Assembly: GCA_965223265.1 (NCBI GenBank)
Contig: OZ244999.1
Coordinates: 3,040,001-3,104,000, forward strand
DNA length: 64,000 bases
Source of the DNA: Planctomycetota bacterium
Lineage (GTDB): Bacteria; Planctomycetota; UBA8108; SXIK01
Reading direction: 5' to 3'
The notes under the pieces are model-generated. The model saw nothing but the letters and a program-made list of their open reading frames with translations. It was not told where the DNA came from and did not search any database. Shown in pieces: positions 1 to 12,076 of the stretch; positions within the stretch are counted from its first letter, which is position 1; every line of letters starts with the position of its first letter. The position numbers and the translations under genes are program-made.

Positions 1-1467
1 ACACCGGGAAGCGAGAGCTATCGCTGGCAGGCTCAGTTCAAATTCACGTATCGCTCGAAGGATCTCGAGGCGCTCGGCGATGCGGTGCCTCTCGCTACCG
101 ATTGTTATTTCACCCGCACACGAACCTACACTGCTGAATCTCGGGCGATGCCGGTCTGGGACGGTCGAGTATTCTCAGATGGAAAGAATCTCGTCGTCGC
201 GGCCTACTCTCGGGGCGGCGAACAGATCGTCGGGCAGATCGTCGAGGGTGAGGTCAGTGTCACCGGGCGCTCGGTGGATGACTCGCGCCGCCCTCCGCTA
301 CTCGATCAAAAGAATGTACGCTACAACCCGTTCAGCGGCCGTCTATGGAGGCCTGCCTCCGGTGGCACGATCACCGAGGAGCAACAGTTCTTCCTGCCGT
401 TGCCGCTCATCGATGCGCAGGGACGGGTCGTGCGGCCAACCTTCGAGATCCTTCCGCGCGGCGGAACGCGCTTCGAGTTGGTGGCAAAGAACGCAGCGAG
501 TGAAATCATACTCGCTCGCTGCGAGCTGCGTGACGCCAAACGACGTCCTGGTTATTCACCGCAGCTCGGGCCGGGGTGCGTTCAACTGACCTCCGACGAC
601 GTGACCATTCTGGAGGTGGAGGGGCAACTGGTGACGAGTGAATTGCTCGCGACCGGTGACCGGCTTATCCTCAAGAGCTCACAGCCCGACGGGCAACCGG
701 TGGAGAGACCCTTGGCGATCGACGGTGATTTCTCGGAGTGGCGCAACGTCGCCGGTATCAACGATCCACGCGGCGACATCCCCGGCTATCTTGAGTACAG
801 CCCGGACACCGACCTCCTAGAATTCAAAGTCCGACACGATCGCCAGCACTTGTACTTCTACACGAGAGTGGCCGGTCGCCATGGCAACACCGAACCGGGA
901 AACGAGCGGGACCGCTACTACTATTACGTGTACATCGACGCAGATCGCGACCCGACGACTGGCTATCTCCCGACTCGAGACGATGACTGCTACTACGGCG
1001 TCACGCTTGGGGACGACTGCGAGGCTCAGTTCGAATTCGTGGCAGGGCGTTTCGTCAAGACGTTCTTTGGTTTCACTGGCGCAGGGACGGAGCGCGATGT
1101 GCTTTCGGGGCGCGTCAAATTGGCGCCGTCGTGGTACAGCCGTCGCGACCCTGACGGGAACGTGCGTGACCGTTACAAGGTCGAGTACGTCCAGCAGGAT
1201 GGAGAGCTGAGCATCACCAAGGACTACCAGGAGGGAACGAGCGAGGACATCACGATCGCCGTGTCTCTGGACGGTACGGAGTGCGAGATGAGGGCTTCGC
1301 TCGACGGGTTTCTGAGGGACGCGTCGGGGAAGCCGATCATCGGATTGGGCCAGCGTATCGACCTGGCCGTCGGCGTCGAGGCCGCAGGCCGCGTTCATGG
1401 TAACGCCAGCTGGGGCGCCGACAGCACCGTTGCGATCCGCGGCTATTCCATCTCCGCGCGGCCTTAG
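1..1467 (+). CDS. Hypothetical protein, 5'-truncated, with a DOMON/CBM9-like C-terminal region
   Basis: Frame 1 is open from base 1 to TAG at 1467. The segment 'IDGDFSEW..INDPRGD..DTDLLEFKVRHDRQHLYFY..YYVYIDADRDPTTGY' resembles DOMON-like/glucodextranase C-terminal domains. Confidence 0.7.
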   Translation, partial: TPGSESYRWQAQFKFTYRSKDLEALGDAVPLATDCYFTRTRTYTAESRAMPVWDGRVFSDGKNLVVAAYSRGGEQIVGQIVEGEVSVTGRSVDDSRRPPLLDQKNVRYNPFSGRLWRPASGGTITEEQQFFLPLPLIDAQGRVVRPTFEILPRGGTRFELVAKNAASEIILARCELRDAKRRPGYSPQLGPGCVQLTSDDVTILEVEGQLVTSELLATGDRLILKSSQPDGQPVERPLAIDGDFSEWRNVAGINDPRGDIPGYLEYSPDTDLLEFKVRHDRQHLYFYTRVAGRHGNTEPGNERDRYYYYVYIDADRDPTTGYLPTRDDDCYYGVTLGDDCEAQFEFVAGRFVKTFFGFTGAGTERDVLSGRVKLAPSWYSRRDPDGNVRDRYKVEYVQQDGELSITKDYQEGTSEDITIAVSLDGTECEMRASLDGFLRDASGKPIIGLGQRIDLAVGVEAAGRVHGNASWGADSTVAIRGYSISARP

Positions 1468-1750
1468 ACGTAGAGGCACCGAACCAGCGCTGACCGCATT
1501 GGTCTCCCCTCGTCCGAATTGCGCATATTCTCCGTTTGCGGTGTGCACCGATACCTGAGCGAGGGGCAAGGGGGCTGTTCGTTCAGCGCTTGCCCATTGT
1601 GCTGATCGTCGAAGGTTCGAAGAGCACGCGTCCGGGGGCATGTGGGAGTTCGGTTGCGCCTCGGACGCGTGTTCGTTTGACGCCACACTCTTCTGCTCTT
1701 GAGCTCTTGCTCTTGAGTCGTTGAGCGTTGGCGACGTGACGGCTGCGGAT

Positions 1751-2443
1751 CTAGATCAATCGCAGCGCAAGCGAGAACACCGGGCCGAATAAGTAGGGAA
1801 ACGCCCAACATGCGGCAACCAACCCGGCGATACTCACCATCGGCTGGCCCATAAACGTCATGTAACGGCGTGCGTTCACTGGGTCGAGGAAGAGCGGCAG
1901 GATCGCGCCGCCGTCCAGTGGCGGCATCGGGAACAGATTGAAGACGAAGAGAAGGACGTTGAGCGAGAAGAGGATGGAAAGAAACAGCGCCGCGTCGCTG
2001 GCGATCGATCCGGGTGCCGCGGCGACAATTTGTGTGAAGACGCAGGTCACTGCTGCGGGTGTATGAAAGATCTCAAGCGCCACTCCGGCGCGGATCACGA
2101 CCGCGACGACGCAGACAACCAGTAGGTTAGACACTGGCCCAGCGAGTGCCATCTTCGCGGCGCGTTTCGGGAAACGCTGTGCCCAGAGCGCGTTATAGGA
2201 CGCGCTTGCCCACCCGCACATCCAGCCGAGGGACAGAAACGTCAACACGGGGACGGCGATCATACCGACCGGCTCACGCTTGAGGTGGGGGAGCGGATTC
2301 AGTGTCACCTGGCCGCCGCGGTAGGCCGTCGGGTCCCCGAGCTGCAGTGCGGCCCATGCATGCGCCGCCTCGTGGAGGACGATTGAGAAAAGAAACGCCG
2401 CGTACCAGAGAACGAGCGCAGCGGTGTCTGGGTTTGCGGTCAT
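1751..2443 (-). CDS. Site-2 protease (peptidase M50) family intramembrane zinc metalloprotease
   Basis: HEAAH zinc motif within a hydrophobic helix, plus 'AGPVSN' and 'FNLFPMPPLDGG'. Start placed at ATG 2443 (MTANPD); the ORF track extends to 2560. Confidence 0.92.
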   Translation of the reverse strand: MTANPDTAALVLWYAAFLFSIVLHEAAHAWAALQLGDPTAYRGGQVTLNPLPHLKREPVGMIAVPVLTFLSLGWMCGWASASYNALWAQRFPKRAAKMALAGPVSNLLVVCVVAVVIRAGVALEIFHTPAAVTCVFTQIVAAAPGSIASDAALFLSILFSLNVLLFVFNLFPMPPLDGGAILPLFLDPVNARRYMTFMGQPMVSIAGLVAACWAFPYLFGPVFSLALRLI

Positions 2444-2701
2444 ATGGTTCGCTGCCTTGCTGCTGAGGCGGCCCAAGGATTCGTCGCCCGTGGTCCGAAT
2501 AACCACCCTTTCTCCCATCTTCGGGCTCGATGGGCGCCGCTCTTGAACGAGTGTGTTCAAGCGATCAGCACGTGCGACATCGGAACTGCCTCCGATCGGT
2601 TCGTATCATTCGTGCTCGGATGCCAAACTTCCGTAGCGTGATGTGCCGGATTCATCGCGAAAGCTTCTGATAAAGGTCTCCTGTCGCGGCGGGATTTCTC
2701 C

Positions 2702-4207
2702 ATGGAACAAAAGAAAAAACGCACTGCTGTCGTCATCTGGATCGTGATCTTCGCACTCGCCTTCTTCATCTACCGCGAAGTCAAATCCCGCCAAGGCTCA
2801 ACGCACCACGTCGAGTACTCCACGTTCCTTGAAGACTTGGAGAGCGGTCGTGTCACCGAGGTCTTGGTCGACGGGAACCTCCTAACGGTTACGGTCTTCA
2901 ACCCGAATCAGACCTACACGACGTTTGGCGCCACTGGCGAGGAGTTCATGGCCAAGGTGTCGGAGTTCGGCGTTCGCGTCGGTTACGGCGACGGTTCGAG
3001 CGGCGCGAGCTCCTCGCTGTGGATGTGGTTGCCGCTGGTGATCGTTCTGGCGCTGATCATTCTTTTTTTCGTCTCGCTCAAAAAGCAGCAAGGCGCCGCC
3101 GGTAACGTCTTCACGCTTGGAAAGAGTCGGGCCCGAAGGATCACAGAAAACGACATTCACTTCTCAGACGTCGGTGGACTTGCGGAAGCCAAAGAGGATT
3201 TTGGCGACCTCATCGATTTCTTGAAGAACTCGCAGCGTTGGATCAGTTCAGGCGTGCGTCTGCAGCGAGGAGTTTTGCTCGTTGGGCCGCCAGGCTGTGG
3301 GAAAACACTGCTCGCTCGTGCAGTCGCTGGAGAAGCGAGCGTGCCGTTTTTCACGCTGTCGGCATCAGAGTTCGTCGAGCTCTTCGTAGGTGTCGGCGCG
3401 GCACGCGTGCGCGACATGTTCGACCAAGCAAAAAAGGAGTCACCGGCGATCATCTTCATCGACGAACTCGACGCGGTCGGGCGTCGGCGCGGCTCGGGAG
3501 TCGGCAGCGCTCACGACGAGCGCGAGCAGACGCTCAATCAGCTACTCGTCGCTATGGATGGGTTCGAGACCACCGACGAGATCGTCGTCATTGCGGCAAC
3601 AAATCGTCCGGACGTGCTCGACAAGGCCCTTCTTCGTCCAGGGCGTTTCGATCTGCGCATCGAGGTGGGCGCCCCCGACCAGGCGACACGTCTCGAGATT
3701 CTTAAGATCCACACGCAAAAGAAGCCACTTACCTCAGACGTGAAACTGGATGCCCTTGCTGAGAAGACCGTCGGCTTCACCGGCGCCGACCTCGAGACGC
3801 TCGCCAACCAAGCTGCACTCTACGCCGTGCGTGCCGTGCGCCTTGAGGGCGCCGCAGAGCCGCAGGTAACGCAGGCGCATTTCGACCGCGCTTTCGAAAA
3901 ACTGGCGAAGAGCGATTGCCTTTTTAACAAGCTCGACACAGCACTCATTGAGTCGGCGTCGCAGTTGTCGCAGCCGACAGGAAACGTCGTTCTGCGGGTG
4001 ACGCTTCGTGGCGGCGAGAAAGTCGAGGGGCGACTGGTGTGGGCGGATGCGGCGTTCATCAAGATCCGCGAAGCCGATGCTGACGAACCCGCCATCCTGC
4101 CAAAACTTCAGGTGCTCCGCATAGAAAGCCTCCCAGGCACCGACGCCGAGACCAACCCGCAGTCGGTGGGGGACCAGTGGGCGCATGGAGTGGCCGAGCT
4201 GGCTTGA
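2702..4207 (+). CDS. FtsH-like membrane AAA+ ATPase lacking the M41 protease domain, with a C-terminal Sm-like region
   Basis: Two TM helices flank an FtsH_ext-like region ([13 protein letters not shown]). Walker A GPPGCGKT, pore motif FVGVG, Walker B IFIDE and [22 protein letters not shown] are all present. No HExxH follows the lid. Confidence 0.9.
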
Positions 4208-4260
4208 CGGCGTCGAGTCCAATCACTCGGGCCGTCAAAGTGGCGCCATCGGGCTGCGAT

Positions 4261-7200
4261 TCACTCGCACGGCGACGCCCGGCACCCGAGGAGAAGGTCG
4301 CCGTCGAGCTCAAGGCTGCCGCAGTCGGGAAAGGGCGCCTGAGGCGATGCACCGCCGGTGAACGCGAATCGGAGGATGAGAACTGCGTCGGAGACGTCGC
4401 CCTCGACGCGACCGTCGGAGTTGGCATCGCACGCGGCGCGGCAGATCGGCGCTTCGCCGCCAGCGAAGTTTGCAGCCAAGAGAAAGAGTGCGTCATCAAG
4501 CTTCGCTGGGTCGCCATCACCGTTACAGTCGCCGCGGCGAAACTGAATCGACGTCGAACAGCTGCTTTCGTAGGCGCCTAAGTCAACCGAATCGCCACAG
4601 CGTCGGGGACGGTCATCGAGGTCGAACTCAGGTGCCCCGGCGTTCACGCCAGCGTCGATCGCCGGCGAGCCGATCTGCAGGCGGTAGTCGCCCGGGTCGA
4701 TGATGAAGTCCGCAATGTGATCGTCCGTGACGCGAGTGAAATCGAACGTGCCGCGGCGGATGAAGCGAGGATTGACGTTGAGGTTGCCGATTCCCTCAGG
4801 CACGTTTCTGCCGGCGACGATGCTGTGGGAAAACCTTGCGTTATTCTTGATGGCGATTCGGAGCAGGTCGTCACCCTGTCCCCAAAAGACACAATTGACG
4901 ATCTCAGCATGGGCTTCTCGCGACAGCTGCAGGTCGTCACCCTGTCCTCCCGCGTGGTTGTCAGCGAACGTACAGTTGACTAGTCTCATTGTCGTATCAG
5001 AGTCACCGTAACGGCTGTCGGAAATCGCGCCACCACCATCCGCAGCGGAGTTGGCCACGAAAAGCGAGCTTTCGACCAATAGTTCCGTGAGGACAGTGCT
5101 AAAGATTGCACCGCCGCTCCCGTTCGCTTCATTGCCGCGAAGAATACTAGAGCGAACGTTAACGCGTGATGCGATCGCCCCAATCGCGCCTCCGTTGCCG
5201 CAGCGATTCGACTCGATGAGGGAACGGTTGACGCCTAGGCGGGCATTTCTCGCGTGAATGACGCCGGAGTCGATCGCAAACGGTCTTTCATTGCCCCGAT
5301 TGCGGCGGATCTCGCTGCGATCGATCGTGAGCTCCGAGCGGATGACGATGGCGGCGATCGAGTTTTCGACGAACTCACAGTCCGCGACAGTCGCGCTGCC
5401 GTCGGCGGTGACTTGAAGACCGATTCTGTTGTTGTCAAATCTGCAGCCCGTGAGAACTGCCGCGCCGCCGGTGACGTCGACGCTATTGAGGCTCGACGTG
5501 AAGTTGCAGTTCTCCAGCTCGACCTGTTCACCACTCGCCACCGAGACCGGGCCACCGGAGACCGTCACGTTCTCCAATCGGGCGCCGGTGCGCAGGCCAC
5601 GAAGACTGCCCGCGACAACCGTTGCATCTCGGTCCACGCCGCGAAGCGAAATGCCGTGTGCTAAGTTGACGCTGGTCGTCGCCTCGTGTCGGCCCGGCCG
5701 CAGCGTGATCCGCTTCGGCGACCGCGTGCCGGCCACGCACAGTCCGAGCGGCACGCCCATGTCGCTGCCGTCTGCCCCCGAGCCCAGGCACGGCGAATTC
5801 GCGCCGAGCGCCAGGCTGAAAACCGAGAAGGCATCGGCGAGTGTTGCGAAGTGCCCGCGCGGTCGATTGGCGACCGACGCCAACTCCGGGTCAACCACGA
5901 CTTCTGCGACGGCGCCGAAGCCGCAGAAAAGCGGATCAGAGTTGATGTTTCCCGCTCCTGGCCATGGAGCGTCGCCCTCGATGCAGCTCCGCCTTACGTG
6001 GATCTGTCCGCCCTCTCCGCTTGTGATCTGAACGCCGGTGTTCGCCCACACGATGCAGCTTTCGAGCTCGACGACTCCCGTGTCAACGGCGATGCCGCCG
6101 GGAGTGTGGCTGGTGACGTTTTCGACGACCGTGCAGTGAGATAGCGTGACACGGCTCTCTTTGTCGGAGAACAAAGCTCCACCTCGCGCAGCTTCGCCCC
6201 CGAGCAGCAGACATTCTGAGAGTTCCACGTTTGATCCGTCGGTCACGAACAGCGCGCCGCCGATCGTTTTGTTCGGCACTGATTCGCTCGCAGCCCGGTT
6301 GCGCACGAACCGGCAGCGCTCGACTCTCACGTTCGATCGTTGGAGCGCTGCAATGGCACCGCCGCGTTCAGCGACATTGCCGTCGAACTCGCAATCAATA
6401 AAAACAGGTGAAGCCTCCTCGCACATGACCGCGCCACCGAATTCCTGTCTGCTGTTGGCCGCGAACGTCGAGCGTCGAAATTCCGGTGCCGAGCCCGGCT
6501 GGCACCACACCCCGGACCCCTGAGAGATGGTGCAGTCGGACACGGTCGGTGCAGATGCGCTTTCGCACACGAGGTTTTCGATCTGGCTTGCAGAGATTTC
6601 AGGTGACTCCCCGGAGCTCACGCGGACGCTACCCTGCATCGACGTGATCCGGCTCAGCAGTGCACTGCTGCGTAGACCACGAATCTCGCCTCGGATGATG
6701 GTTTCGCCCGCTGTTGACCCAACGACACCGACGTCCTGCACAAGGTTTCCGGCCTCGTAGGTCCCAGGCGCCACGTTCAGGAGCGCCGAGGACCGCCCTG
6801 AACGCTCGCAGGTGCCCAAACGAGCACCCACATCCGTCCCACCGAGTCCGCTGCCGAGACATGGTGAGTCGGCGGCGAGGGCGTAGTCGAACGTTGAGAG
6901 TGCAGCGGTGATCGAGGGAAACGGTCGCTCGCGGCTGCCGTCGTTGGCGCCGGCGTCATCAACCGCAGCGTCAACGAAGAACTCGCGTTTGGCCCCGCGC
7001 CAACCGCAGAAGCGTGGGTCGACGTTGAAGTTGCCCGTGCCTGGCCAGACGGTGTCGCCAGCGATGCAGCTGAAGGAGACCGCAACCTCCGCTTCGGGAT
7101 CGACGGTGAGGGAACCACCGACGTTGTCGACGACGATCGAGTTGAGAACTTGGAGCTGACTGCCGCGCGTGGCGAAGATGACGCCGCTCTCGAATGAGTC

Positions 7201-8853
7201 GTTCGCGCTGATGGTGCAGTTCGTCAGAGTCGTGAGGCCTGAGACGTGAAGGGCAGGTCCCTGTCGGTACAGGGCGCTGTTTTGAGTCACAATACAGTCG
7301 ACGAGATCCACTTTCGCTTGGGAATTCACGACGATGCCTTGGGTGCATCGTTCGATGCGGCAGCGGGAGAGCTCGACTTTCGAACGAGGTCGACACTCGA
7401 CACCTATGGCCGCCCCGCTGACCTCGCAGTGCTGCAGCTCCAACTCTGCATCCGAATAGCAAAGAACTCCTAAGCCGTTGATCTCCGTATTGATCAGCCG
7501 GCTGCGACCGATGACTGCGGCTGCTCGGCGAAGCACGCGAACGTTCTCGAGCGTCATGTCCCCTCTGAGCGAAACAGCGTCGAGAGCCGTTGCATCGCCG
7601 GATCCTACGAGGTGGATCGAGAATCCGTGAACCATGTTGCTCAAGTCGAAGTGTCCGGAGCCGAGTTGAATGCGGCGTCCAGGTGGGCCGACAAACTGGC
7701 AATCGCCACGGACCGCTCCCATGTCGTCCCCATCTTGGCCGCTGCGGCGGCACGGGGATTGTGCACTGAGCGAGAGTGAGAAATCGGCGAGGACGGAGTC
7801 TAACTCTGCTTGTGTAGCGACGATTCTTTCCGTCTCGCTTCCCCATCCACAAAAGAGGGGGTCGGAGTTTTGGTTCCCCGGCCCTGGCCACGGGGACTCG
7901 CCTCCGACACAAGAGAAAGCCACCTCGACTGCAGTGTTCTCGCCGTGGACGACATCCTCACCTTGATTCCAGACGATCGAATTGCGAATCTCGAGGCGGT
8001 CGCCCCCTGCCACGATGCCACGTACGTTGCCAGCGATGGTTGAGCCTTCGCTGACAATTCCTGAGGCGTCGATCGACTCGATCGCGACGCGGCATTCGCG
8101 GATGACGCAACCGCGGAGCTGAACAGATGTGTCGCCTTCCGCGGCGATTCCACGAACCGCCTGAGAAATCGTGCACTCGCTGAGCGAAACTTGTGACCCT
8201 CCTGTAGTTGAAAGTGAGCGAAGGTGGCACTGGTCGAACGTGGAGGTCGCTCTTCCACTGAGAACGACATCCGACATCGTCACCTTCCTCACAGTAGCCG
8301 CGCCCGTCACCAAAAGGCGGTGTTGCAGCTCGCACTGGTTCAGAGTCGCTGCGCCGGCGAGAGACAACGTTGACTGAAACAGACAGCCTTCGACCATCGG
8401 GTCGCCGCGAAACACTGCGGGAATCTCGACGATGCAGTCGTTCACGGTTAACGCCGCATCGATCGTGAATGTCGCGTCTCGTTCACCACGAATCGTGAAA
8501 CCACTCAAAACGGACGCCGCCGTCTCTCCGTTGCGCAGCGTGATCGAACCTTCCAGCGTCGTGAACTCCGGCCCCTCTTCCGACCGCAGCACGACGTCTT
8601 TCACTGGCGGTGCTGCAGGGTCACGTGGGTCGCGCAGGCGGTTGAAGTCGAGAGGGATGTCAGCGACGTAGGTGCCCGGTGCCACGATGATCGTGTCACC
8701 GCTTGCGGCGAGATCGAGCGCTCGTTGGATCGTCGCGGCCTCACGTGTCGGCACCCTGATCTCGCGCGTTTCGAGCGCGCCGGCGTCGATGACCGCCGCG
8801 GCTGGTGTGAGCAACGTGAGGATCGCTCCGACGCAGAAGCGACGTTGTCTCAT
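4261..8853 (-). CDS. Large secreted right-handed parallel beta-helix (pectin-lyase fold) repeat protein with C-terminal dockerin-like domain
   Basis: Signal-like N-terminus from ATG 8853 (MRQRRFCVGAILTLL..). Contains 'TIQRALDLAASGDTIIVAPGTY', GGAI/FxxN repeats, 'DYRLQIGSPAIDAG..DLGAYE' and a terminal FRRGDCNGDG domain. The ORF track extends to 9075. Confidence 0.85.
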   Translation of the reverse strand: MRQRRFCVGAILTLLTPAAAVIDAGALETREIRVPTREAATIQRALDLAASGDTIIVAPGTYVADIPLDFNRLRDPRDPAAPPVKDVVLRSEEGPEFTTLEGSITLRNGETAASVLSGFTIRGERDATFTIDAALTVNDCIVEIPAVFRGDPMVEGCLFQSTLSLAGAATLNQCELQHRLLVTGAATVRKVTMSDVVLSGRATSTFDQCHLRSLSTTGGSQVSLSECTISQAVRGIAAEGDTSVQLRGCVIRECRVAIESIDASGIVSEGSTIAGNVRGIVAGGDRLEIRNSIVWNQGEDVVHGENTAVEVAFSCVGGESPWPGPGNQNSDPLFCGWGSETERIVATQAELDSVLADFSLSLSAQSPCRRSGQDGDDMGAVRGDCQFVGPPGRRIQLGSGHFDLSNMVHGFSIHLVGSGDATALDAVSLRGDMTLENVRVLRRAAAVIGRSRLINTEINGLGVLCYSDAELELQHCEVSGAAIGVECRPRSKVELSRCRIERCTQGIVVNSQAKVDLVDCIVTQNSALYRQGPALHVSGLTTLTNCTISANDSFESGVIFATRGSQLQVLNSIVVDNVGGSLTVDPEAEVAVSFSCIAGDTVWPGTGNFNVDPRFCGWRGAKREFFVDAAVDDAGANDGSRERPFPSITAALSTFDYALAADSPCLGSGLGGTDVGARLGTCERSGRSSALLNVAPGTYEAGNLVQDVGVVGSTAGETIIRGEIRGLRSSALLSRITSMQGSVRVSSGESPEISASQIENLVCESASAPTVSDCTISQGSGVWCQPGSAPEFRRSTFAANSRQEFGGAVMCEEASPVFIDCEFDGNVAERGGAIAALQRSNVRVERCRFVRNRAASESVPNKTIGGALFVTDGSNVELSECLLLGGEAARGGALFSDKESRVTLSHCTVVENVTSHTPGGIAVDTGVVELESCIVWANTGVQITSGEGGQIHVRRSCIEGDAPWPGAGNINSDPLFCGFGAVAEVVVDPELASVANRPRGHFATLADAFSVFSLALGANSPCLGSGADGSDMGVPLGLCVAGTRSPKRITLRPGRHEATTSVNLAHGISLRGVDRDATVVAGSLRGLRTGARLENVTVSGGPVSVASGEQVELENCNFTSSLNSVDVTGGAAVLTGCRFDNNRIGLQVTADGSATVADCEFVENSIAAIVIRSELTIDRSEIRRNRGNERPFAIDSGVIHARNARLGVNRSLIESNRCGNGGAIGAIASRVNVRSSILRGNEANGSGGAIFSTVLTELLVESSLFVANSAADGGGAISDSRYGDSDTTMRLVNCTFADNHAGGQGDDLQLSREAHAEIVNCVFWGQGDDLLRIAIKNNARFSHSIVAGRNVPEGIGNLNVNPRFIRRGTFDFTRVTDDHIADFIIDPGDYRLQIGSPAIDAGVNAGAPEFDLDDRPRRCGDSVDLGAYESSCSTSIQFRRGDCNGDGDPAKLDDALFLLAANFAGGEAPICRAACDANSDGRVEGDVSDAVLILRFAFTGGASPQAPFPDCGSLELDGDLLLGCRASPCE

Positions 8854-9475
8854 GTCTGCCCTTGAAATGGGTTGAGAAGATCTGTCGTTGCGGCGCCGCC
8901 GGAGCGTTGGCTGCCACAAGCCACTCAAGAGAACCTTTGAGATGATCTGCCGGCTCCGATCGTCGGGGTGGTGGGGACCGTTGTCAACATCCGTCCGTAC
9001 GGAAGTTCCGGCGACTCCGGTCGCTTGAACGGCCGCGTTGCAGCGAGCTCGGCCTCGCTCATCATCAGGCCGCACGCTCGCGCCAACGCCGCCAGAACGT
9101 GCGCCACGCGCAGGTTGGCCGTGACGTCGGGACTGGTTCGACGATTGGGATTTGTTTGTTGCGCTGGCACGGATGGGGTGCTTTGATCGAAGGGCTCGTG
9201 CAGTTGCACGGGGGAGTCTCGGGACGATCTATTCTCGATCCACGAACACTTGGGACGTCAAAGTGTGGAATGAGCGAGATGCGACCTGTCACATGAGCCG
9301 GGGGGACGAACATGCGTGCGCTTTGCGCGTCGACTCAGGGCCCCTTTGTCGGCGACCGACCCAGGGCCGTCTACCGCTCTGGGCCACGAGCGATGTGAAT
9401 AGGTAAGCCGTAAGAAGCCATCGCGCCGGCAGGCGGGCGTTCAGGCGCGAGGACGATCACTCCAAGGGGATTCCC

Positions 9476-12076
9476 ATGCAGGAACGAATTGGGACTCGGC
9501 GGCGCTTTGAGATTGGTTTGGCAAACTTGATTTCTCAGACATCGACGCGACGGGGCCCGCACCTGCCAGGCGATCTGTCACGAGCTGCGGTTGTGCGCGG
9601 CCTCTGTCTCGTCGGAGTGGTTCTCGGGGTTGTAGGAGCGGCACGGGCGAATGAGTCGCCGCAAGCGGAACTCGACTTTGTCTTCGTTGAACGACCGCTC
9701 GGAGTAGCGACCCCGGGGGGCTGGGTGGCATCCTCGTCCACCGTCGTCAACACCGTATGGGGAAGCCGTCTGACGCGACACCTCTCTAGCGGTGAGGTCC
9801 GCGTCTTGATCGACGGATCCGTCACGGACGAAAGGCGCAATGACATTCCGTTCGACGTCATGCAGCCGGACATCTCCTACGACGGCAAGAACATTGTTTT
9901 CGCTGGCCTTTCACCGACGGAGAACGCTTGGCGCATCTACACGGTCTCCGTCGACGGCAGCGGCCTGCGCCGACTGACGCGGTCGGATCGCCAGCTCGAT
10001 CTGTCGCGTTTCGGGAATCTTGCGACTGACTTCGAACACTACGACGATCTCGACCCGTGCTATCTCCCAGACGGTCGAGTTTGCTTCGTGTCGACGCGCT
10101 ACCCTGGCCCTGCCCCAAACGGCCGGCGGCGAACGACGAATCTTTACGTCATGGACGGAGATGGATCCGGTCTTCACCGCATCACGACAGAGCGTTTCGG
10201 TGCGGAGACTCCGGTCGTTGATCCGATGACGGGTCGCATCGTCTATTCACGCTGGTGGCGATCGCCGCCGGCGTCAACGCGCCGGGTGAGGCACGGCTCG
10301 AACGATTACACCGGTGTTGCCACACAACTTCCTGAGGGTACGATCCTCAGCGGCGTTGACGAAGACGCGTTCTCTGGCGTCAATCATTGGTTCTTGGCGA
10401 GTGTTCGCCCCGACGGCGATGGCCTGCGCATGTTTCAAGGCGGCGGACTCGATCGTAACGTCGCAACGGTGTACGATCCGAGCTTTCTTGCCGACGGCAG
10501 AGTGATCGCACTGGCGCTGCCGCGGACACCCCAACTGGGGAAGCCGGAGAAATCACACTTCCGTCGGCTCCAACGTACGGCGTCGGAGGTCACCTCCTTC
10601 GGCTTTCAGCCAGCGCGATTCTCGGGCGGGGCAGCCGTCGACGAGACTCATATTTTGGTGAGTGAGCTTGAGGCTGGCCCTGCGGGGTCGTACGGCATCT
10701 ATCTCCTAGAGTTCGCGGACGATCCAGCGGCAATCACAACGGAGAAAGTCGTCGGTGTCGGGGGAATGGACGCGCTCGATCCGGTTTTGGTGCGAGTGCG
10801 ACCGCAGCCACCTGCCTTGCCAGAGTCAACAGTGACGCCGCGAGGGGGCGACGGTCGTGCGGTCGATTTCATCCCGAACACTGTGAGCGAAGCGTTTCGT
10901 CGCGGAACGTTTCGTTTCTTGTGCGAAAACGTTTTTGGTAATGCCCCCGTGGATGAGCCGATGACGCACTCGCCTCCAGCCGGCAAGCGACTCTTCATCG
11001 AGTTTTATATGAATCCGCAGCGCACTGACGCGGAAGGCAACGACGAACCACTTCTCATCCGGCGGCAGGAAGTTGCCGCCGATGGACGTATCGACGTCAC
11101 CCTGCCAGCGGACGTTCCTCTCTTTGAGATCTTGCGCCGGCCTGATGATCGCCTCGGCGTCGGGCGAGATGGGCAAGTCTTTCACGTCGCCGGCCACAAT
11201 TTCGGAGCACCCGGGACGACCGCACGATGCATCGGTTGCCATGCCGGACACACTCGGCTTGACGTGCCAGCGGAACCGATCTGGACGAACCTTGCACCGA
11301 GTGCGCGCGCGACGGCGTCGAGCTCCAACGAGATTCCGGGCAGCAATGATCGATGGCGACCAGCGCCGCGCGTCACTCCCCCGAGCGTGAACGATCGGCA
11401 GACGGATACGCGCTGGGAGGCCGAGCCACGGCGAGATGGTTCTGGGCCAGCAGCCGATGACGTTCGTCTGTCGCTGCGCTGGGCAACGCCGATTCTGGCG
11501 CGTGAGGTCGTCGTTTACGGCGTGCCGAGCGACAACGCAACGACGACCCAGCCGACTGACGCCGTGGTGCACCGGTTCTCGGTCGTAACCCGCCTGGGCG
11601 GTGTCGAGATCCAGCGACGCGTGGTCAGGGACGCAGCAACTCCCGATGGGTTGCGTATCGGCGTCGACCCGTCGCGAGCCATCGACGAGGTTGAACTGGA
11701 GATCGACGCCGCCGACGTCACTGGGCATGTTCGCGGCGTCCCTGGCGTGCCGGCACTTGCCGACATCGAAGTGGTCGCACGCGTGGTGCCGGACACGGAG
11801 CCAGCGTCCCTCTTCATCCGTAGCGATGCGAACTGCGACGCCAGCGTCAGCCTTGCCGACGCGGTCGCGACGCTTAACTTCCTGTTCCGCGGCGAGGGAC
11901 CGCTTTGCTGCATCGCTGCAGCGGACACTGACGCCGACGATCGCGTCAACATTAGCGACGCGATTTATACCCTCACGTATCTGTTCGCGTTCGGCGAACC
12001 CATCGCGGAGCCGTTTCCGTTTTGCGGCCGAGCCACCGAAGGTGAGCTGTCGTGCGACGAGCACACGTGCCGCTAA
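9476..12076 (+). CDS. Hydrazine synthase alpha (HzsA)-like / TolB-propeller secreted protein with CxxCH motif, discoidin-like region and dockerin-like C-terminus
   Basis: 'PDISYDGKNIVFA', 'DDLDPCYLPDGRVCFVSTR', 'RIVYSRW' and 'ADGRIDVTLPADVPL..CIGCH', then 'NLAPSARATASS' and the terminal 'FIRSDANCD..PFPFCG' domain. The true start may be downstream. Confidence 0.8.
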   Translation: MQERIGTRRRFEIGLANLISQTSTRRGPHLPGDLSRAAVVRGLCLVGVVLGVVGAARANESPQAELDFVFVERPLGVATPGGWVASSSTVVNTVWGSRLTRHLSSGEVRVLIDGSVTDERRNDIPFDVMQPDISYDGKNIVFAGLSPTENAWRIYTVSVDGSGLRRLTRSDRQLDLSRFGNLATDFEHYDDLDPCYLPDGRVCFVSTRYPGPAPNGRRRTTNLYVMDGDGSGLHRITTERFGAETPVVDPMTGRIVYSRWWRSPPASTRRVRHGSNDYTGVATQLPEGTILSGVDEDAFSGVNHWFLASVRPDGDGLRMFQGGGLDRNVATVYDPSFLADGRVIALALPRTPQLGKPEKSHFRRLQRTASEVTSFGFQPARFSGGAAVDETHILVSELEAGPAGSYGIYLLEFADDPAAITTEKVVGVGGMDALDPVLVRVRPQPPALPESTVTPRGGDGRAVDFIPNTVSEAFRRGTFRFLCENVFGNAPVDEPMTHSPPAGKRLFIEFYMNPQRTDAEGNDEPLLIRRQEVAADGRIDVTLPADVPLFEILRRPDDRLGVGRDGQVFHVAGHNFGAPGTTARCIGCHAGHTRLDVPAEPIWTNLAPSARATASSSNEIPGSNDRWRPAPRVTPPSVNDRQTDTRWEAEPRRDGSGPAADDVRLSLRWATPILAREVVVYGVPSDNATTTQPTDAVVHRFSVVTRLGGVEIQRRVVRDAATPDGLRIGVDPSRAIDEVELEIDAADVTGHVRGVPGVPALADIEVVARVVPDTEPASLFIRSDANCDASVSLADAVATLNFLFRGEGPLCCIAAADTDADDRVNISDAIYTLTYLFAFGEPIAEPFPFCGRATEGELSCDEHTCR

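Follow-up and report, generated by a model that had tools for sequence, protein, structure and literature searches.

What does an FtsH become once its peptidase is gone? In FtsH, by definition, an unfoldase is fused to its own peptidase, and the question is raised by a gene in a 64,000-nucleotide stretch of a Planctomycetota genome (assembly GCA_965223265.1, contig OZ244999.1, positions 3,040,001 to 3,104,000; hereafter the window). This gene, which we call AAA-Sm, encodes a 501-amino-acid (aa) protein, read from the open reading frame (ORF) list and its translation, with coordinates that include the stop codon (Table 1). Beside it lies a gene for a small Peptidase_M50 protein, an intramembrane metalloprotease of the site-2 protease (S2P) type. 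This neighbor is the strongest functional clue at the locus and was overlooked by the first-pass annotation, which had been made from the sequence alone. The near-constant pairing of the two genes suggests a membrane proteolysis system in two parts, driven by ATP, of a kind not described before.

Up to and including the AAA lid, AAA-Sm has the layout of FtsH. The first-pass annotation had described the FtsH architecture as far as the lid, with two transmembrane helices and intact Walker A and B motifs, FVG pore loop and second region of homology (SRH), and all of these, together with a periplasmic FtsH_ext segment and the AAA domain, are borne out by Pfam, by the sequence and by 36 aligned full-length relatives. 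K201, D254, E255, N301, R312 and R315 are invariant in 36/36 of these members; judged by its intact conserved motifs, AAA-Sm is a catalytically competent FtsH-type ATPase. FtsH_ext itself is matched in 14 of the 36, and the family includes short-loop forms without it. Residues 10-379 align to residues 5-376 of the E. coli FtsH chain 7vhp, and the AAA part is 51% and 57% identical to the two FtsH proteins encoded by the source genome, a single 9.18-Mb contig, with similarity stopping at aa ~384-392. Likewise, aa 13-401 match positions 4-402 of the 598-position NCBIfam model FtsH_fam (TIGR01241) with 456.4 bits, which is under the cut-off of 600 because the peptidase half is missing.

The loss of that half appears to be complete. 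AAA-Sm has no Pfam match to Peptidase_M41 (PF01434), and neither HExxH nor HxxEH occurs in any of the 36 family members. The earlier argument that no M41 domain is hidden by a frameshift stands, in that a tblastn search with the M41 halves of both of the genome's own FtsH proteins against all frames of window positions 1-12000 returned nothing (best E 0.34); one detail of it requires correction, as the convergent 1604-aa ORF ends at 4261 and leaves a gap of 53 bp rather than 54. Any peptidase activity would have to be contributed by a different protein. The canonical ftsH expected elsewhere in the genome is present as two genes, both with HEAGH, and no M50 or AAA-Sm gene of any kind lies within 1.5 kb of them. 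Canonical FtsH is kept in all six AAA-Sm genomes checked.

In place of M41 the protein carries a tail of ~95 aa that very probably has an Sm-like fold, as the first-pass annotation had suggested; the tail sequence reads as it was quoted there. Three sequence-profile tests agree on this point. Pfam Hfq_1 (PF21979) matches 23 of the 36 full-length members at E ≤ 0.01 and 29 of 30 tail-only sequences at E ≤ 1 (best 1.2e-6), with competing families matching at most two members each; the related NCBIfam model Hfq_rel_Cyano matches 28 of the 30 tails, the window copy falling under its curated cut-off. A PDB search with a profile of 30 tails returned three chains at E ≤ 10, all of Sm fold: 3hfn, a cyanobacterial Hfq homolog (E 0.0019), 6gwk, an Hfq (E 0.0091), and 9if7, an LSM protein (E 0.035). 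With a profile of six tails, 4/4 matches were Hfq or LSm. Finally, hhalign aligned the tail to Hfq domains over aa 428-479 with a probability of 89.3% (E 2.1e-6), the target alignment comprising six domains of the same phylum that are positive for Pfam Hfq; the control, the genome's own M41 region, gave 0.09%. The window tail is the sole Hfq_1 match at E ≤ 0.1 across the 9.18-Mb genome. In the ESM Atlas, the homolog P0002 had only AAA/FtsH neighbors, and nothing matched the tail-only fragment P0005 (best score 0.78).

Conservation within the tail is concentrated in a helix-like stretch (F..LD..LIES.SQL..PTG), followed by R.TL..G...EG.LVWAD..F.K.R, a lysine in ..PK.Q.., and then GT and D.WA; D412, G443 and W447 are invariant in the 36 members. 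The protein closes with a peptide of the pattern GT, ~10 residues, D.WA, ~5 residues, [LV][AG]-COOH, and the last residue is A or G in 28 of 36. This acidic C-terminal peptide may serve as a docking element, which is a guess on our part. The resemblance to Hfq is closest for the cyanobacterial Hfq-related group (3hfn), with which the tail shares the same register over five strands, and the lysine kept throughout the family falls opposite that of the 'yKh' stretch in Hfq chains. Unlike Hfq, which is a small, stand-alone, basic protein, the tail is always the C-terminus of a ~500-aa ATPase, fused in cis, and is acidic (median isoelectric point (pI) 4.8 and median net charge -4 over the 36 members, with a neutral Sm core); no RNA link was found. 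Among 19 short matches, mostly gene fragments with AAA_lid, none was annotated as a stand-alone relative of the tail. Canonical Hfq (PF17209) was not found in the source genome at E ≤ 0.1 and is rare in the phylum (5 of 151 genomes sampled), where Hfq_1 was found in 0 of 301.

The tail is conserved well beyond this genome. A HMMER search with aa 393-501 recovered 90 clusters at 50% identity (E ≤ 1e-3), 35 of them at E ≤ 1e-10, and in all full-length matches the tail is C-terminal in a protein of 454-538 aa, with no longer or fused form. Purifying selection acts on the tail: ratios of nonsynonymous to synonymous substitution rates (dN/dS) in close pairs are 0.17-0.46, compared with 0.13-0.28 in the AAA core. 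An assembly chimera near position 3900, which had been named as a concern, was not seen. Three runs, from one study and two samples that may be the source of the assembly, yielded Logan contigs of 17-19 kb over 1700-4300, and these continue through the tail without a difference, gap or joint. The gene is rare, being present in three of 61 relatives, with one strong match in 401 genomes of the phylum and in four of 151 genomes of another order. The metagenome-assembled genomes that carry it are labeled Planctomycetota, Acidobacteria, Myxococcales, Spirochaetales and Proteobacteria, and AAA-Sm is a sparse but widespread bacterial family. Nine weak matches to the tail profile in the phylum (E 6e-5 to 9e-4), besides the window's own, were set aside as chance or unrelated small barrels because none adjoins an AAA gene.

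Two homologs depart from the common form. The AAA-Sm homolog of genome G016 (L005, G016:C536, 1495-3119) lies in two overlapping frames that switch near aa 310, reflecting either a frameshift in the gene or, in a genome of 1400 contigs, a fault of assembly. In P0014, a 250-aa fragment at the edge of a metagenome contig, the conserved tail continues into a repeat-rich NHL-like region, probably through read-through or a chimera.

Where, then, might the missing peptidase activity reside? Loci were fetched by the tail, using a six-row alignment of it, from species-representative genomes, and a Peptidase_M50 gene adjoins AAA-Sm in 11 of the 12 genome loci, in eight of them as the next gene downstream on the same strand. 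In the window and in G007 and G016, the only two of 60 relatives with an AAA-Sm gene, the M50 gene lies upstream in divergent orientation. On metagenome contigs the M50 gene is directly downstream in 22 of 25; one further contig ends at the gene, and two are without M50, namely L066 and L055, a short, rearranged contig whose near-identical relatives have the M50. Two additional genomes from another order both show the adjacency. Merging of loci at 90% tail identity left 29 informative lineages from several phyla, and M50 adjoins AAA-Sm in 27 of them. Stop-to-start gaps run from -4 to 138 bp and are mostly 2-60 bp (8 bp at L013), and no conserved neighbor other than M50 was found at AAA-Sm loci. 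A pairing of this constancy, with gaps of a few bases and in two arrangements, is hard to explain without a shared function.

The M50 protein itself scores 42.5 bits against Pfam PF02163 (cut-off 27.2), its catalytic residues are invariant in 56 sequences, and its profile matches the RseP and MJ0392 chains in the PDB. PF02163 is the sole domain in a protein of 255-269 aa, in which neither PDZ (group I) nor CBS (group III) domains were found, the S2P groups being those described in PMC10202637. In the M50 tree, the eight operon-linked genes form a long-branch clade of their own (100/100), and the three divergent-linked genes, including that of the window, fall inside an abundant group of ~232-aa proteins (93/86). 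The window and G007 copies of the ATPase are nested among operon-type members in the corresponding FastTree tree. We infer from these sequence phylogenies that the M50 partner was exchanged in the window's lineage, which would represent a second, independent pairing; the ATPase is found with two M50 lineages and in two gene orders. Since the ATPase is rare and the small M50 common, the pairing is asymmetric, and AAA-Sm looks like an accessory that joins a small and common S2P. A few conserved positions distinguish linked from unlinked small M50 proteins; we set these aside as confounded by phylogeny.

We propose that AAA-Sm is an AAA+ unfoldase or dislocase that works with an intramembrane protease in trans, a reading to which we give an even chance. 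Six subunits would assemble at the cytoplasmic face of the membrane into a ring like that of FtsH, and six Sm-like domains, placed at the point where M41 attaches in FtsH, would close into a symmetric ring that keeps the hexamer together. The protease domains of FtsH are described as a stable symmetric hexamer and its AAA ring as asymmetric, and the soluble domains as driving hexamer formation (PMC12067869; PMC9020784). The Hfq fold forms hexameric tori (PMC10590398), and cyanobacterial Hfq has been reported to dock on the C-terminal domain of the hexameric ATPase PilB1 (PMC4390875). With a hexamer-forming fold at the M41 attachment point, the simplest reading is that the Sm-like domain supplies the ring. 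The ATPase would then grip membrane proteins and unfold or dislocate them, and the neighboring M50 protein would cleave peptide bonds in trans. The ATPase would either pull and unwind transmembrane segments so that they enter the M50 active site or extract the fragments left behind by M50. A site-2 protease followed by an AAA+ enzyme is the textbook order for RseP, with the AAA+ protease ClpXP completing the degradation of what RseP has cut (PMC10202637). We infer ring formation from the fusion to a hexameric AAA ATPase; contact with M50 and the direction of hand-over are likewise part of the proposal. In a more specific version, which we regard as doubtful, the AAA-Sm hexamer would dock on the small S2P and drive transmembrane segments into its active site, with the Sm ring and the conserved C-terminal peptide as the platform for assembly and docking, a part played in FtsH by the M41 ring. 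If true, the docked AAA-Sm/S2P complex would be the first energy-dependent intramembrane protease and would give the uncharacterized domain-less S2P groups a first mechanism.

Several observations weigh against cooperation with M50 or against the proposed ring. The window's own tail reaches 20.1 bits (E 7e-4) against Hfq_1, below the Pfam cut-off of 27, and we found no precedent for an Sm ring beneath an AAA pore. L066 has no M50 downstream, the upstream side being missing from the contig, and L008, the sole exception covered on both sides, has no adjacent M50; its genome encodes such an M50 elsewhere. The window's M50 belongs to a clade other than the operonic ones and is divergently oriented, and it has unlinked paralogs in the source genome and relatives. 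Moreover, the small M50 is present in 147 of 401 genomes of the phylum (E ≤ 1e-25), with the ATPase within 1.5 kb in none of the 10 best loci; being common without the ATPase, it does not need it.

In two rival explanations, M50 would not receive its substrates from AAA-Sm. The ATPase could be a stand-alone membrane unfoldase or dislocase that releases proteins to the cytosol, its Sm ring replacing the M41 ring structurally and M50 being merely co-regulated or co-inherited. An intact ATPase and pore loop without a peptidase would suit such a role, the L008 lineage keeps the ATPase without an adjacent M50, and the C-terminal motif is kept whichever M50 clade adjoins; we nevertheless consider this explanation unlikely, given how regularly M50 adjoins the gene across phyla, at tight gaps and in two independent arrangements. 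The first-pass annotation had pictured a membrane unfoldase or dislocase comparable to Msp1. The intact ATPase motifs are consistent with the first part of that picture, but with M50 as a near-constant neighbor, an unfoldase served by a separate intramembrane protease is more likely than an extractase that acts alone in the manner of Msp1. Alternatively, the ATPase could regulate or chaperone M50 by assembling, activating, gating or turning it over, or by removing an inhibitor. The same synteny would follow, and a small M50 that works alone in most genomes makes the ATPase look like an accessory layer; SpoIVFB, held in check by BofA and SpoIVFA, offers a parallel (PMC10202637). Improbable as we judge it, this role would also sit poorly with the conservation of a full FtsH-type translocating pore loop and with the lack of any conserved candidate inhibitor gene nearby.

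Other explanations place the function of the tail or of the whole protein elsewhere. The Sm-like domain could bind RNA or a nucleotide ligand and so tether RNA to the membrane or put the ATPase under ligand control; RNA binding was one of the roles raised by the first-pass annotation. Its best profile matches are Hfq proteins, the invariant lysine aligns as described above, and the genome has no canonical Hfq at the threshold used; RNA binding is disfavored because the tail is acidic, the best-matching (cyanobacterial) Hfq subfamily is known for binding an ATPase (PMC4390875), and the conserved partner gene encodes a protease and no RNA enzyme, all of which leave this a slim prospect. It is very unlikely that AAA-Sm mixes as a protease-less subunit into canonical FtsH hexamers and modulates them, in the manner of plant FtsHi with FtsH12 (PMC9020784). 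Its AAA domain is 51-57% identical to those of the genome's own FtsH proteins, and canonical FtsH accompanies it in every AAA-Sm genome checked, but FtsHi proteins keep an M41-like domain, and it is the protease domain that is reported to select protomers (PMC9020784); that domain is absent here, and the gene is linked to M50 and not to ftsH. A truncated pseudogene, a frameshift or an assembly chimera would be in keeping with the two-frame G016 homolog, but more than 30 independent full-length copies of the same architecture, purifying selection, contigs without a single difference (if possibly from the source samples) and the lack of any M41 remnant exclude it for practical purposes.

AAA-Sm can be compared with several known systems. 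With FtsH it shares the TM-FtsH_ext-TM anchor (TM, transmembrane helix), a classic-clade AAA domain, the FVG pore loop and the SRH Arg fingers; unlike FtsH, it has the whole of M41 replaced by an unrelated beta-rich module and does not reach the FtsH_fam cut-off. Plant FtsHi and the Ycf2-FtsHi motor of chloroplasts are likewise FtsH-derived and without an active peptidase, and are described as pulling polypeptides without degradation (PMC9020784; PMC10500165). In contrast to AAA-Sm, FtsHi proteins keep a degenerate M41 domain lacking HExxH and act in hetero-hexamers (PMC9020784), whereas AAA-Sm is bacterial, is paired with M50 and retains no M41 similarity at all. The succession of RseP and ClpXP also joins a site-2 protease to an AAA+ unfoldase, there acting one after the other on a single substrate (PMC10202637). 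In that system the AAA+ enzyme is cytosolic, unlinked and equipped with its own peptidase, and the S2P has PDZ domains; the AAA-Sm ATPase is membrane-anchored, lacks a peptidase and is encoded with a domain-less S2P. The anti-phage pair IetA-IetS is another two-gene combination of ATPase and protease. AAA-Sm scores 129.7 bits against IetA, a generic AAA match far below the 456 bits for FtsH_fam, and its partner is not a serine protease; PADLOC returned only this generic match and none for M50 or the tail. Msp1/ATAD1 are eukaryotic membrane-anchored AAA hexamers that extract proteins without degradation. Their anchor is a single N-terminal one, and they are not known to have an FtsH_ext, a ring domain at the C-terminus or a partner gene for a protease. 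FtsH-containing ternary systems differ in that they are described with a double AAA and MoxR-vWA (PMC7159879). In the literature, supplements aside, we came across no account of an FtsH-type ATPase that carries an Hfq-like tail, nor of such an ATPase being paired with M50.

Features of the locus are collected in Table 1. The divergent intergenic region between the two genes contains no sigma-70-like consensus site and no Rfam family, and Rfam, tRNA and promoter/terminator scans of the region gave nothing notable. A stretch of ~20 nucleotides, CGGATGC[CT]A[AC]ACTTCCG, is common to window positions 2615-2640 and the G007 locus (L007 ~2990-3015), was not seen in G016, and may be a shared regulatory site. 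The convergent 1604-aa protein (4261-9075, minus strand) is built from right-handed beta-helix repeats (Pfam Beta_helix E 1.5e-47, NosD, Chlam_PMP), and its Asp/Gly-rich C-terminus is dockerin-like. On the other side, a 460-aa ORF at 85-1467 (plus strand), which may extend beyond the window start, matches no Pfam family at E ≤ 0.001.

Table 1. Coordinates of AAA-Sm, the neighboring M50 gene and their features in the window
Feature	Positions	Strand	Basis
AAA-Sm gene, FtsH-type AAA+ ATPase with C-terminal Sm/Hfq-like module	2702..4207	+	Pfam, NCBIfam, 36 aligned full-length relatives
Predicted transmembrane helix 1, aa ~9-27	2726..2782	+	Kyte-Doolittle 19-aa windows >1.6
FtsH_ext (periplasmic) match, aa 11-78	2732..2935	+	Pfam PF06480, E 7e-12
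Predicted transmembrane helix 2, aa ~106-126	3017..3079	+	Hydropathy peak 2.89
AAA ATPase domain, aa 191-323	3272..3670	+	Pfam PF00004, E 2.7e-45
Walker A GPPGCGKT, aa 195-202	3284-3307	+	
Pore loop FVG, aa 228-230	3383-3391	+	
Walker B IIFIDELD, aa 250-257	3449-3472	+	
SRH with Arg fingers, aa 299-317	3596-3652	+	
AAA_lid_3 domain, aa 346-380	3737..3841	+	Pfam PF17862, E 8.8e-11
Probable Sm/Hfq-like module: conserved helix aa 408-427 and five-strand core aa 428-479	3923..4138	+	Sequence profiles
Sm-like core of the tail, aa 428-479	3983-4138	+	
Conserved acidic C-terminal peptide of AAA-Sm	4139..4204	+	Alignments
Shared divergent intergenic region, M50 and AAA-Sm genes	2519..2701	.	Sequence
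Small Peptidase_M50 gene, 255-aa form, proposed partner	1751..2518; longest ORF to 2560	-	Pfam PF02163
HEAAH motif of M50	2360-2374	-	
NLFPMPPLDG motif of M50	1910-1939	-	

Candidates for small barrels of this type also turned up outside the AAA-Sm family. In two genomes from one family of the phylum, a C-terminal Hfq domain is the only Pfam match in proteins of 362-376 aa (L076, G066:C1, 577-1662, 31.2 bits; L077, G153:C68, 1375-2502, 26.1 bits), which represent another fused use of the Hfq fold. Ten of the 30 tails show weak similarity to the C-terminal end of the Leptospira LIC_13076 family (best E 3.5e-6), and matches to a Leptospira anti-sigma factor family (E 0.0048) and to RimP were obtained with three and two tails, respectively; these families are possibly other carriers of the same small barrel. 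At L066, the gene next to AAA-Sm (379-921, minus strand) resembles an anti-sigma-factor antagonist, STAS-like by eye.

There is a sizeable chance that AAA-Sm and M50 constitute a new type of machine. Intramembrane proteases are generally regarded as operating with no source of energy. By keeping the FtsH motor and swapping the peptidase, this family suggests that an AAA+ protease has been re-partitioned over two genes, with two kinds of active site. If AAA-Sm and M50 cooperate, the pair would provide a testable model of ATP-assisted intramembrane proteolysis and would add to the uses of the Hfq fold a structural one, on a hexameric ATPase, that does not involve RNA. It would also offer a first functional handle on the domain-less S2P groups, none of which has been extensively characterized according to a 2023 review (PMC10202637). 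If the two do not cooperate, AAA-Sm would still be a bacterial example of a dedicated FtsH-type extractase.

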